From Octopus vulgaris (taxonomy: Eukaryota), in assembly GCA_951406725.2 (NCBI GenBank), contig OX597816.1, positions 124,496,001 through 124,560,000 on the forward strand: a DNA stretch of 64,000 nucleotides, read 5' to 3'. Made by a program: the position numbers and the translations under genes. Below, one piece after another: positions 12,480 through 56,858 of this stretch (positions are counted from its first letter, which is position 1; each line of letters opens with the position of its first letter). The notes under the pieces were generated by a model. It was not told the DNA's origin. It did no database searches and saw only the letters and a program-made list of their open reading frames with translations.

Positions 12480-13720
12480 TACAAAGCAGTCCCGACTCCA
12501 ATTACCGGCGTTGTTACCGTGCTAGCTGTAACGTAAGAATTTCTACTACTACAAAATGGTGTAGTTGGTGTTTATCAATGCGGTTTACATCTCCTTGGTT
12601 AGTATTTAGATGCAAATGTTCGTTAGGTGGGTTATTGAACCTTTGCCGTACTTTTTTATTGTTTATGCGATGTATAAGCCACTCTAAATTAGCAGAGTTG
12701 GCGTAGGATACCTTCAGGGTTTGTCGATTGAAAATAGCACGATACCGATTAGATTTAGGAAAACACTTGTCAAAGCAGCAAAAGATTTTCCAGCGATCTT
12801 GGTTGGAACATGCAAACCGAAAACCAGGTTGAGCTAGAGGACATCCTGATGGCTATATCTGTTGTTAGGCTTATTTGATCGAGCATGTTGTACAAGATTG
12901 GAACAAGCAGTTGAATTATTATGTCGCGGGTGTCTATGAGTTTTCTTTGATAGGTCATTGATACGACCAATTCTTTCTGGCCGGTATTCTTTATTTGAGT
13001 GTGTTCTCAAACGGTAACGTTGTGATGGTATACAATGTGCATCACAGTTAGAGAAATTACCAGTATTGTGTATGCCTACTTCTTGTATATATTGAATTGT
13101 TTCCCGATACCCAACCCTAGCTAGAGTATCATTATAATAAGTTGCATGAGATTCGAGAATTTTATTGTTTGCAGATAATCTAGAGATTCTTCTAGAAATA
13201 TTCTTAACTAGTCCCCGTATTATCGAGGGTGGATGGTTGGATGCTATGTTAATGTACTTAATATGATCATTTGCCTCATGAAATAGTTCGAATAATCCAG
13301 TATCAAGACAGAAGGTAGCGTCAAGAAAATTCACTCTACGATATATTTTTGAAAGATCTAATGAACTTTTTCCTATGCCTTTCTAACTGTACTATACTTC
13401 TTCTGTCTAGAAAAAATAAGGCATCATCCTTATATAGACACCCTGTTACGCCCGGAAAGGAAAACTGGATTAATGAAAGGATATATATTCCGACTAGGTC
13501 ACTGATCCCATTGCTATATCAAATGCATTCTCCCTATCTAATCTACTCTATAATCTACCATCAAAATCTACTAGAGTGGCTCTCGCGGCAAGTATAATAT
13601 CTTTTTCGTGTTGGGACACATCGGAATTAATTTTCATGTTAAAATCAGGGCTTGATTAAGAAAGATCGGGTTGATAGTTGCATAGTAAGCTCTCTGTATC
13701 TAGTTGCAAGAATTTACTAT
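12480..13720 (-). mobile_element. Penelope-like element RT remnant
   Basis: GCLYKDDAL (compare GLYRDDGL) at about 13415-13442; ORF 12834-13334 NFLDATFCL...YINIASNHPPSIIRGL..NISRRISRLS; downstream DKCFPKSNRYRAIFNRQTLKVSY. Confidence 0.88.
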
Positions 13721-13842: not shown

Positions 13843-13930
13843 TCACACATATATATATATATTTCTATATATATATGAGTATGAGTATATATATATATGG
13901 GTATGAGTATCTCATTTATTTCTTTTGCCA

Positions 13931-13989
13931 CATGTATCACTGACGAAGAGGGGACTCTTAGTAGCTAACTCTGAAATCGGTCCGATATG
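13931..13989 (+). ncRNA. Degenerate minimal type I hammerhead ribozyme (Penelope pLTR-type)
   Basis: CTGACGA-AGAG...CTCT-GAAA-TCGG-TC, with imperfect stem I (TATCA/CGATA); adjacent to Penelope RT. Confidence 0.55.
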
Positions 13990-14243
13990 GTAATAATGGA
14001 ATTTTTTAGAAATTTCTGTCGACCTTCTTTCGAGTAGCGTGCGTATTGTGAAACAATTATATGGTTAATGGACAATATGTCCAATTTTTCGGCATATTTG
14101 GCATTAGGAATCTTTTCCTTTGCCCTCATTTATGAATTGTTTATAAATTTTACCGTTAAAGGTACTTTTTGATATGCTGGCCATTGATAAAATTTTCTTC
14201 GAGAAAATATCTTTTTTCGAAAAGAATTTTATCCTCAAATTTG

Positions 14244-31060: not shown

Positions 31061-31083
31061 CCGAAATAGGTCATACAGGGATA

Positions 31084-31177
31084 TCATATTTTTTCGGCTG
31101 ATATATCCTCCAGCCTTCATCAGGTGTCTTGGGGAAATTCCCTAAGGTATTTTTCGATGTTGTTGTTGTTGTTCTTG

Positions 31178-31339: not shown

Positions 31340-31667
31340 TAACTACCTGGAAGCGAACTCGGAATTTTGGGATTAGTAGCCCGCTCTCTTAACCAGTGGT
31401 TAAGAGCGTGGGCTACTAACCCTAAGATTGAGAGTTCTATTCCAGGTAGTGACCTGAATAACAGCAACAATAGCAACAACAACAACAATAATAATAATAA
31501 TAACATCGAAAAATACCTTAGGAATGAGAACCAGTTTCGAAATTTTCTAAGACACCTGACGAAGGCTGGAGGGTATCTCAGCCGAAACAATATGAGGACA
31601 AATATCCGTCAAATGTAAGCAATATAAATAATGTACATAATTCCTCATCTCTTAAATATAGAACTGT
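31084..31667. mobile_element. Head-to-head palindromic pair of a tRNA-headed SINE with (AAT)n linker and hammerhead-like tail
   Basis: Symmetry axis at 31396 (CTCTTAACCA-G-TGGTTAAGAG). Each arm has a tRNA-like head, an (AAT/AAC)n tract, then GACAC-CTGA(T/C)GA-A-GGCTG...CAGCC-GAAA. Confidence 0.85.
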
Positions 31668-40934: not shown

Positions 40935-41718
40935 TAATGATTTCAAATTTTGGCACAAGGCCAGCAATTTCAGGAGAGGGGCTGAGTTGATTACATCGAT
41001 GCGAAAACTCAACCGGAATTTATTTTATCGACCCTGAAAGGACGAAAGGTGAAGTCGATCTTGGAGGAATATGAACTCAGAACGTGGAGACAGACGAAAT
41101 GTTGCTAAGCATTTTGCCCGGTGTGCTACCGATTATCTGCTCGCCGCCTTGACATAATCTTAAATAATTATTTCAAATTTTTCTCACAAGGGTAGCTTGG
41201 GGGAAGTGGGGACGAGTCGATTACATCGATTCCTAAAGGATGAAAGGCAAAGTCGACTTCGGCGGAATTTGAACTCAGAACGTAGCCACGAGCGAAATAC
41301 CTATTTCTTTACTACCCACAAGGGGCTAGACACAGAGAGGACAAACAAGGACAGACAAACGCATTAAGTCGATTACCTCGACCCCAATGCATAACTGGTA
41401 CTTATTTAATCGACCCCGAAAGGATGAAAGGCAGAGTCGACCTCTGCAAAATTTGAACTCAGAACATAACGGCAGACGAAATACCTACTTCTTTACCACC
41501 AACAAGGGGCTAAACACAGAGAGGAGAAACAAGGACAGACAAACGAATTAAATCGTTTATATCGACACCATTGCGTAACTGGTACTTATTTAATCGTCCC
41601 CGAAAGGATGAAAGGCAAAGTCGACCTCGGTGGAATTTGAACTCAGAACGTAACGGCAAACGAAATACGGCTACGCATTTCGCCCGGCCTGCTAACGTTC
41701 CTGCCAGCTCGCCGCCTT
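40935..41718 (-). mobile_element. SINE family A cluster: monomer (40935-41150) and three-core form (41165-41718)
   Basis: Core AAAGGATGAAAGGCAAAGTCGAC repeated about every 185 bp. Confidence 0.88.
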
Positions 41719-47415: not shown

Positions 47416-47524
47416 ATCTGATTATGAATTTAGTATATAAAAATTACCTACGAGGTTTTTAATTCACGCTGACCATTCAATAAAATCATTAAAATGATCT
47501 CATCCTTAATTCTGTAAAGAATAA

Positions 47525-47678
<154 letters not shown>

Positions 47679-47897
47679 TATATAACAATGATAAATATCA
47701 AAGTGAGTTGTATACAGTAGCGGTAACACATCGTGACGTATTTTTGCCATTTCAATATGGCTAACCCCTAAGGGTGGATGCTACTGTAGTTTTTAGCCCC
47801 AGGAGGACACACTCCTCCAGCTGGCCATAGACACACTATCTGTGTCCTGTCAGTATTTGCAAAGGGAAGTCATCCTTCCCGTCTTCAACTTATGATA

Positions 47898-47942
47898 CAC
47901 ACGGACTCGAGTTTCAAGGTATTGACCTCTCGTCAGCGTGTG
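47898..47942 (-). ncRNA. Type I minimal hammerhead ribozyme
   Basis: CACACG-CTGACGA-GAGG tcaata CCTT-GAAA-C TCGA G-TC-CGTGTG; G-U pair at the base of stem II. Confidence 0.85.
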
Positions 47943-48475
47943 ACAATCATAGTTGTCGCCGAGAATTAGATTTCCTTCACAAATACTTATACTTTTTCCA
48001 GCGTCCACTGTCGCTGATATTGAAAAAGTGAAATCAAACAATGATAAATATCAAAGTGAGTTATATACAGTAGCGGTAACACATCGTGACGTATTTTTGC
48101 CATTTCAATATGGCTAACCCCTAAGGGTGGATGCTACTGTAGTTTCTAGCCCCAGGAGGACACACTCCTCCAGCTGGCCATAGACACACTATCTGTGTCC
48201 ATTTGCAAATACTGACAGGACACAGATAGTGTGTCTATGGCCAGCTGGAGGAGTGTGTCCTCCTGGGGCTAAAAACTACAGTAGCATCCACCCTTAGGGG
48301 TTAGCCATATTGAAATGGCAAAAATACGTCACGATGTGTTACCGCTACTGTATATAACTCACTTTGATATTTATCATTGTTTGATTTCACTTTTTCAATA
48401 TCAGCGACAGTGGACGCTGGAAAAAGTATAAGTATTTGTGAAGGAAATCTAATTCTCGGCGACAACTATGATTGT

Positions 48476-48520
48476 CACACGCTGACGAGAGGTCAATACC
48501 TCGAAACTCGAGTCCGTGTG
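48476..48520 (+). ncRNA. Type I minimal hammerhead ribozyme, intact core
   Basis: Stem I CACACG/CGTGTG, core CUGACGA, stem II GAGG/CCUC, GAAA, palindromic stem III ACUCGAGU, predicted GUC cleavage after 48514. Confidence 0.9.
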
Positions 48521-48685
48521 TATCATAAGTTGAAGACGGGAAGGATGACTTCCCTTTGCAAATACTGACAGGACACAGATAGTGTGTCTATGGCCAGCTG
48601 GAGGAGTGTGTCCTCCTGGGGCTAAAAACTACAGTAGCATCCACCCTTAGGGGTTAGCCATATTGAAATGGCAAAAATACGTCAC

Positions 48686-48774
<89 letters not shown>

Positions 48775-55927: not shown

Positions 55928-56858
55928 CTAGCAGCATAACCCGGCGTTGCCCGGGTATATAAGAGCCCCTAGTAGGCAACGACTAATCCCAATCTAGTCC
56001 TTTCCCTCTAGGGAACGAAGGGGCATGTGTAGGTTGCAATGTCTTCTCTTCACTCGAATACTTCTGTGTATACGATGTTCCTAGCTGTCCCTTTGGGCGA
56101 AAACATGAAAACATCATTGCGCCTCCCAACGCGTGAACAGCCCACGTAGAGTTGACCGTGGGCGAAGCACTGTTTTCCCAACTGTAACCCAGCGACTTGT
56201 AGCGTTTGGCCTTGGGATTTATTGATGGACATTGCAAAGCAGAGTTTAACAGGAAACTGAGAACGCCTGAAGTGGATTGGTAGGTCAGCACCCGACGGTT
56301 GAAGGTGCATGCGTGGAATGAAGACGTCCTCTCCCTTCCCACAACCGGTAAGTATTGTGGCCGTTATTAAATGTGGTGGCAAATGTTTCACAACCACACG
56401 TGTGCCGTTGCACTATTTAGGTGGAACCAAACTTTTAACTTCAGGATGTGTGGCGGCAGGCCTGGCGGTTCAAGTGAATTCAGGAATTCAACAGGATAAT
56501 CGGCAAGCTCGGCGGGGTCTGCTGTCTTATCAATAGATTTGTGGACGTGGACATCACCAGGAATAGCTTCAAGTAGCTGGATATTGATGGAGTTGAGAGT
56601 TAAAAAGGTCGAGTTGCGTCCCCTAGACAGTCTGTGGTTTGTGTTTCTGATTTCGACCCCATGTAGAATTTATCGATTTTTTTCAGAATTGGGGGAACTT
56701 TTCAAAATGTTCACTGCGTTAGTTTTGAATTATGACATTGGGCTATGTGTGTGTCAAGTTTCATCAGAATCGGTTGAAAGCCGTGGTCAGGGTGAGGGTA
56801 CAACCTGACAGACACACAGACACACAGACAGACAAACTGCCGTTTATATATAGAGAGA
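55928..56858 (-). mobile_element. Complete non-autonomous Helitron (931 bp) carrying a PIF1 helicase C-terminal fragment
   Basis: Minus strand A|TCTCTCTATATATAAA at the 5' end; 3' hairpin CCCGGGCAACGCCGGG then CTAG|T; internal YPVEFLNSLEPPGLPPH.LKLK, CNGTR, QFPVKLCFAMSINKSQGQTL, HGQLYVGCSRV. Confidence 0.95.

Follow-up and report, generated by a model that had tools for sequence, protein, structure and literature searches.

The published metazoan non-LTR retrozymes consist of tandem units, 150-450 bp long and non-coding, that each carry a single type I hammerhead (PMC7229834; 10.64898/2026.07.22.740005), and the family described here is built in the same way; its 353-nt unit compares with 350-390 nt in mussels and 353 nt in the axolotl (same sources). 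Circles are reported for retrozymes (PMC7229834), whereas here the circle is proposed from DNA data. That Penelope-like elements reverse-transcribe circRNA into tandem cDNA has been put forward as a proposal, and the way in which retrozymes re-enter animal genomes is left open in the same two papers, whose available text contains no insertion-end maps, inverted arms, two priming sites or within-locus haplotypes (PMC7229834; 10.64898/2026.07.22.740005). Opposite-strand hammerhead pairs are already in print (PMC7229834, PMC4209133, 10.64898/2026.07.22.740005, PMC8557442). The main text of the octopus repeat annotation makes no mention of retrozyme, ribozyme or circular (PMC13282606).

Endonuclease-bearing Penelope-like elements show 5' truncation, an inverted copy and AT-rich or (TA)n targets (PMC11167929, PMC3846280, PMC8557442), as is seen here. 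Their hammerhead lies upstream of the start sites, and a tail of 30-40 nt at one end corresponds to the gap between two internal RT starts (PMC11167929); both features recur here, although the tail measures about 46 nt as against 34-36 nt in the autonomous families of this genome. The Penelope RT of Poseidon (PAc) nicks and extends both strands, with two internal starts whose gap is the genomic tail; in vitro it had no strand preference between the two starts, in contrast to the near-strict pairing found here, and the enzyme, the sole Penelope RT so far characterized in vitro, worked on linear RNA that was left uncut and did not need the hammerhead (PMC11167929). The present unit has no such ORF as these elements carry; the longest open frame in the six frames of the repeated unit is 66 codons. 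Non-autonomous Chlamys elements such as MRC1 also form multicopy head-to-tail insertions (PMC8557442), but MRC1-type Chlamys share 3' sequence with an autonomous family, whereas no homologous partner was found here, and most Chlamys are described without hammerheads (PMC8557442), while one is present in each unit of the present family. How Penelope-like elements form tandem and inverted structures is also open in print (PMC8557442). The class of element is thus known, and the family adds a new member to the metazoan non-LTR retrozymes.

The window is a 64,000-nt stretch of the Octopus vulgaris genome (contig OX597816.1, positions 124,496,001 to 124,560,000), and the features of the locus are given in the table, with unit position 1 set at 48198. 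The preliminary description saw a palindrome with a 17-nt unpaired center in a (TA)n tract, and the measurements agree: the inverted arms (47733-48200 and 48218-48685, 468 nt each) have only 2 mismatches between them, and TA tracts flank both sides. The direct repeats on both sides of the palindrome have a period of 353, and the arms comprise 1.46 and 1.38 copies of the 353-bp unit. The unpaired center (48201-48217) is oriented with the right, short-end arm, of which it forms the extra 5' part, and one non-majority base lies at 48201 within the joint. The tail is carried by the left end only, and the G-U pair of the left-arm hammerhead replaces the first G-C pair of stem II.

Table. Features of the insertion and its flanks (window 47524-48772).
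Feature	Position	Strand	Description
Left half of (TA)n target tract	47524-47683 (TA run to 47684)	.	
Long-end arm	47684-48200	-	517 nt, 1.46 units; unit 21 -> 353 -> 184 (site B)
Penelope-type tail	47684-47732	-	49 nt between sites A (135-138) and B (181-184)
Left-arm type I hammerhead	47898-47942	-	one C>T at CpG, giving G-U in stem II
Head-to-head joint	48198-48217	.	3-nt overlap of 5' ends plus 17 unpaired nt
Short-end arm	48198-48685	+	488 nt including the 3-nt overlap, 1.38 units; ends at 135 (site A)
Predicted multibranch RNA domain around site A	48278-48351	+	kept in older sister families
Right-arm type I hammerhead	48476-48520	+	predicted cleavage after 48514
Right half of (TA)n target tract	48686-48772 (TA run from 48689)	.	

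The right-arm hammerhead matches the full Rfam model Hammerhead_1 (RF00163) with 32.2 bits and an E-value of 7.8e-6; the gathering score is 34, and a search at gathering level returns no hammerhead match at the locus. With this full-model match and the mirror copy, the claim of one type I hammerhead per arm stands. Stem I has 6 bp, stem II 5 bp and stem III 2 bp with a palindromic loop, and a stem III of this type is typical of metazoan hammerheads working as dimers (PMC4209133). The palindromic loop 3 therefore fits dimeric cleavage, and self-cutting is predicted from the intact motif; in Xenopus, 8 of 9 tested elements did not cleave (10.64898/2026.07.22.740005). The circular monomer is predicted to fold with -116.9 kcal/mol (z -7.9 against 60 shuffles). 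One helix set around site A and the hammerhead has 93% of its cells paired over 6 related sequences, with only 2 double-sided changes among them, which is a weak signal. The multibranch domain around site A may serve as a candidate RT-binding signal. Template-borne variants number 0/26 in the hammerhead and 21/186 elsewhere, a depletion that is borderline (P 0.055). Rfam microRNA matches at the locus are artefacts of the hairpin.

Support for the retrozyme reading comes from the family-wide data and not from locus 47684-48685 alone. Searches of the 2.8 Gb assembly (227 contigs) with exact patterns yielded 169 junctions of site A with TA at the 3' end and 258 copies that read through site A, numbers that leave no room in the assembly for a large satellite block of the subfamily. 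The junctions are dispersed; among the matches listed, the first 100 of 169 lie on contigs C1-C11, and further matches occur on contigs up to C31. The analyzed set comprises 104 loci with 109 insertion blocks, a few of which are fragments. It was drawn from the top DNA matches, the read-through list of C1-C5 and the site-A list of C1-C9 and is not a random sample; six views that repeated the same or a duplicated place were removed, and the wider L131 took the place of L002. Copies diverge from the majority sequence by a median of 0.6% (n=100), and the idea of a young, dispersed retrozyme family is borne out by this figure and by the junctions on many contigs. The proposed (TA)n targeting is likewise upheld, with 103 of 109 blocks adjoining a TA tract on at least one side and 83 on both; any target-site duplication is masked by these flanks. 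The unit has 150 G or C among its 353 bases (42%), in line with the GC content of under 50% that marks metazoan retrozymes. It is non-coding and in none of the 104 loci attached in sense orientation to a Penelope ORF, as had been supposed, and no LTR-type body was found in these loci. This 353-nt non-coding hammerhead element has well over a hundred young insertions, the 1-kb palindrome among them. An older family (unit of about 357 nt, 75% identity) shares the two ends, the inversion and the helices, with a palindromic loop 3 that is kept but different, and a still older family keeps the block around the start sites. L003 and L004 (G000:C9, 75.170 and 75.176 Mb) hold the same insertion and flanks twice, 6.3 kb apart, through local duplication or assembly duplication.

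The unit was also found in runs X1 and X2 (presumed RNA, one study) as one 383-nt contig (353+30) that closes into a loop, and a circle and a tandem give the same assembly loop, so that the contig is not counted as evidence. Contigs identical to the unit of the window over 100-383 nt occur in runs X1, X2, X16, X17 and X18, which carry five organism labels besides the commonest; close relatives, label differences or horizontal transfer may account for them. Loose ends near unit position 350 in runs X2, X10 and X18 point to another sister family, whose sequence differs upstream of that position.

The 3' ends of the arms are fixed. They fall at 134-138 (site A) or 176-186 (site B), about 46 nt apart, in 150 of 160 arms. 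The 51 head-to-head insertions include 45 with one A and one B end, 1 with two B ends, none with two A ends and 5 with one odd end, and the A+B pairing in 45 of 46 pairs has a P value of 7e-13. Blocks running in a single direction end at A in 50 of 58 cases; among the 28 not selected on an A end there are 21 A, 3 B and 4 odd ends. From this pairing and these counts, A would seem to be the site that is primed first or must be primed, with B serving the second strand. Short/long pairing together with the tail is the Penelope insertion signature, and the family bears the Penelope-type marks (fixed two-site 3' ends, 5' truncation, head-to-head inversion). Neither the short/long pairing rule nor single-template haplotypes were found reported in the literature searched, which included few subscription papers.

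The inner ends, by contrast, are spread over the unit in the 51 head-to-head insertions. The closeness of the two arm starts had been remarked on before; at this locus they do lie 16-20 nt apart in the unit, but family-wide such proximity is at chance level (7/51 within 20 nt, 5.9 expected), and since inner ends are random across the family, the 16-nt coincidence is chance. Arm lengths are barely correlated (Spearman 0.25, P 0.09). Joints range from -10 to +10 nt, and 27 of 42 have a 1-10 nt overlap. A snap-back had been suggested as one source of the inversion. At the present locus the 17-nt center runs in the direction of the right arm, so that in a fold-back the left arm would have been copied from the right one, yet it extends 49 nt beyond the start of the right arm. 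Near-symmetric pairs make up only 4 of 45, and 19 of 45 pairs fit no fold-back. Simple snap-back is ruled out on these grounds, and the inversion is with high probability the product of two independent primings joined at their 5' ends. Inversions in Adineta Pen2 were ascribed to self-priming (PMC3846280), which does not fit the arms described here.

As to the template, 112 of 150 arms run through the predicted cleavage site, 39 of them more than once. The expected tandem arrays exist as head-to-tail arms of up to 6 units: 81 arms exceed one unit, and the longest measures 2122 nt. No pile-up of 5' ends is seen at the cleavage site (unit 316-320: 3 seen, 2.0 expected), and crossings of the site show no excess of indels (2/180 against 100/5373 background windows). 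Units within a locus share one haplotype. At a site that is split 52:45 among the loci, the two arms agree in 37/37 loci (0.50 expected), and at two other common sites in 19/20 and 26/27 (0.62 and 0.70 expected); agreement between units within an arm is 58/59, 26/26 and 32/33 at the three sites. Mixed haplotypes along one arm of L013, and a difference between the arms of L065 at site 262, speak against a single template. Rare alleles are uniform over both arms in 6 loci, and no locus was found in which a rare allele is uniform in one of two multi-unit arms but not in the other. In L040, two rare alleles are present in 5/5 units. One of them, 339G, occurs genome-wide in L040, in a 1.15-unit copy without the second allele and in an old diverged copy, and no other multi-unit array in the assembly has it. 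A template of monomer length that was re-used many times explains most of the data, and a circle is the simplest form of such a template. The earlier suggestion of a re-used monomer template, most likely circular, is thus supported by one haplotype per locus and scarless read-through of the cleavage site. The template was probably a monomer circle, and it is somewhat more readily believed than doubted that the same molecule templated both arms.

The alleles that are uniform over a locus differ in kind from those found in a single unit. A>G accounts for 7 of 21 uniform alleles and for 15 of 185 singletons (P 0.003), a comparison of small numbers made after a 5-allele patch in L097 was dropped. 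Among the 185 singletons the two strands are affected alike (C>T 33, G>A 32, T>C 17, A>G 15). Such an enrichment is in keeping with a template that underwent A-to-I editing, and 271G turns up on two different haplotypes. However, short copies also carry 271G (three of them) and 339G (two), so that these could be donor-lineage alleles and not marks of single molecules. ADAR disfavors a 5' G, which 2 of the 7 A>G sites have.

Instead of a circle, the template may have been an uncut linear multimeric transcript of a uniform array (or an upstream DNA or RNA circle), with Penelope RT starting internally at A and B and the hammerhead a mere passenger. This is unlikely. Scarless read-through is expected from such a template, the hammerhead depletion reaches only the borderline value given above, and L013 has mixed units; moreover, the anole Poseidon RT prefers unprocessed RNA in vitro (PMC11167929), and weak cleavage of the monomer is to be expected from a stem III of 2 bp (PMC4209133). 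Against it, arrays copied in this way could only shorten per generation, yet 5-6-unit arms exist on several haplotypes, and L040 has no longer donor in the assembly. Unit-specific variants are not inherited in register: no pair among 56 loci shares two of them (0.5 expected by chance), so that donor arrays are not seen to be copied in this manner. An RNA edit would also not recur in every unit.

Re-use of a single linear template, either a monomer or a 1.x-mer, through precise jumps from end to end or telomerase-like re-annealing one unit back, is improbable. It accounts equally well for uniform haplotypes and for arrays that grow, telomerase is the sister group of Penelope RTs (PMC8557442), and short rearranged patches inside some arms (L039, L092) show that template jumps occur. 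What speaks against it is that neither stops nor indels are in excess at the cleavage site, although a terminally redundant 1.x-mer with re-annealing escapes these tests.

That the copies represent terminal repeats, truncated at the 5' end, of an autonomous Penelope element, or ordinary insertions that unequal crossover and conversion later expanded and homogenized, is very improbable. Ends, tail and inversion do match those of autonomous elements, but the possibility that the unit is always such a terminal repeat fails on the 104 loci, none of which is linked in sense to an RT and GIY-YIG ORF or has an arm running 5' into a shared ORF-bearing body; the arms enter more units instead. Local amplification is invoked in the available text of a 2026 preprint (10.64898/2026.07.22.740005), yet all arrays keep exact RT-type 3' ends, and the 185 singletons persist between units, so that conversion has not erased them, with a spectrum that differs from that of the uniform alleles. 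An assembly or chimeric-read artefact is hardly credible, since palindromes between TA tracts are hard to assemble but 51 independent head-to-head loci with differing joints follow one end rule, and the older family has the same form with arms 92-97% identical.

The reading favored as likely is that of a retrozyme circle copied in trans by a Penelope RT that was primed from both target strands; that a Penelope-like element moved the retrozyme is very probable. A copy of more than one unit would first be transcribed. A pair of hammerheads, probably dimerized by way of the palindromic loop 3, would then release the 353-nt monomer, which a host ligase would close; excision and ligation are modeled on mussel and axolotl retrozymes (PMC7229834). 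A Penelope protein would nick both strands of the (TA)n tract and prime at A (135-138) on one of them, and at B (181-184) on the other in about half of the events; the fixed ends and their pairing are observed, and the enzyme is presumed to be an RT/GIY-YIG protein acting in trans. Each RT would circle the template for a random distance, on average about 430 nt in the sample, passing through the ribozyme site; the read-through is observed and the circle presumed. To roll around a circle, an RT that lacks RNase H must displace the strand ahead of it, which counts against this scheme. Finally, the 3' ends of the two cDNAs would be joined through short microhomology, as in the joints observed, to give the head-to-head palindrome.

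More tentatively, and with somewhat less than even confidence, the palindrome may be read as the record of one circle copied by two Penelope RTs at once, with edits fixed in every repeat; one strand would then always be primed short and the other long, 46 nt away, and the circle would sometimes be A-to-I-edited. If true, this would count as in vivo evidence that target-primed reverse transcription can proceed by a rolling circle, and the inversion and tail of Penelope would be explained by asymmetric two-strand priming and not by self-priming. New here are unusually clear insertion footprints that make the two mechanistic questions testable: the family offers a 353-nt substrate, priming sites predicted at base level, a strand rule and candidate enzymes, so that both could be addressed in vitro, for which a suitable system is described (PMC11167929).

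Two young autonomous Penelope families of this genome have intact 784-codon frames with RVT_1 and GIY-YIG, are flanked by TA and follow the short/long rule in 6/6 and 3/3 two-armed copies with both ends visible. Their RT/GIY-YIG proteins are candidates for the enzyme that likely acted in trans on the retrozyme RNA. Among 13 full-length and 30 GIY-YIG loci, a small sample given 6136 GIY-YIG candidates, none was found to hold an autonomous element with homology to the unit, and three other Penelope families examined have no similarity to it. A contig of run X6 that diverges near site A was considered as the parent element; it maps to L132, one old copy with 86% identity that lies in unique DNA, and the idea was rejected. 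A Penelope-like RT fragment in the window (12834-13382, minus strand) was discarded as partner, being part of an old decayed family whose best relatives are 70-77% identical.

Among the 104 loci, L131 has the one head-to-head Penelope neighbor. At L131:4500-7100 (G000:C17, about 47.713 Mb) a retrozyme arm stands head-to-head with a 5'-truncated Penelope that ends at the long site; the fragment is 98-99% like its nearest copies, and the retrozyme end is non-canonical (about 234). This is a possible co-integration that would name the partner.

Loci L143-L155 and L183-L206 comprise three young autonomous Penelope-like families (784-, 784- and 781-codon frames) with (TA)n targets. Two of them have a hammerhead-like motif with a U3-A8 core as against C3-G8, and the motif of the third is more degenerate. 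One of the families has a separate 472-codon frame that overlaps the start of the RT frame and has no Pfam match. Elsewhere in the window, a hammerhead-like motif at 13930-13990 (plus strand) adjoins a TA tract near the RT fragment at 12834-13382. Related hammerhead-like motifs at 31080-31130 (minus strand) and 31550-31595 (plus strand) lie back to back around (TTA)n and probably belong to another Penelope-type family with a trinucleotide target. A frame at 55983-56412 resembles what we take to be a Helitron-type helicase fragment, and a 184-bp repeat is present in 2.4 copies at 41235-41668.
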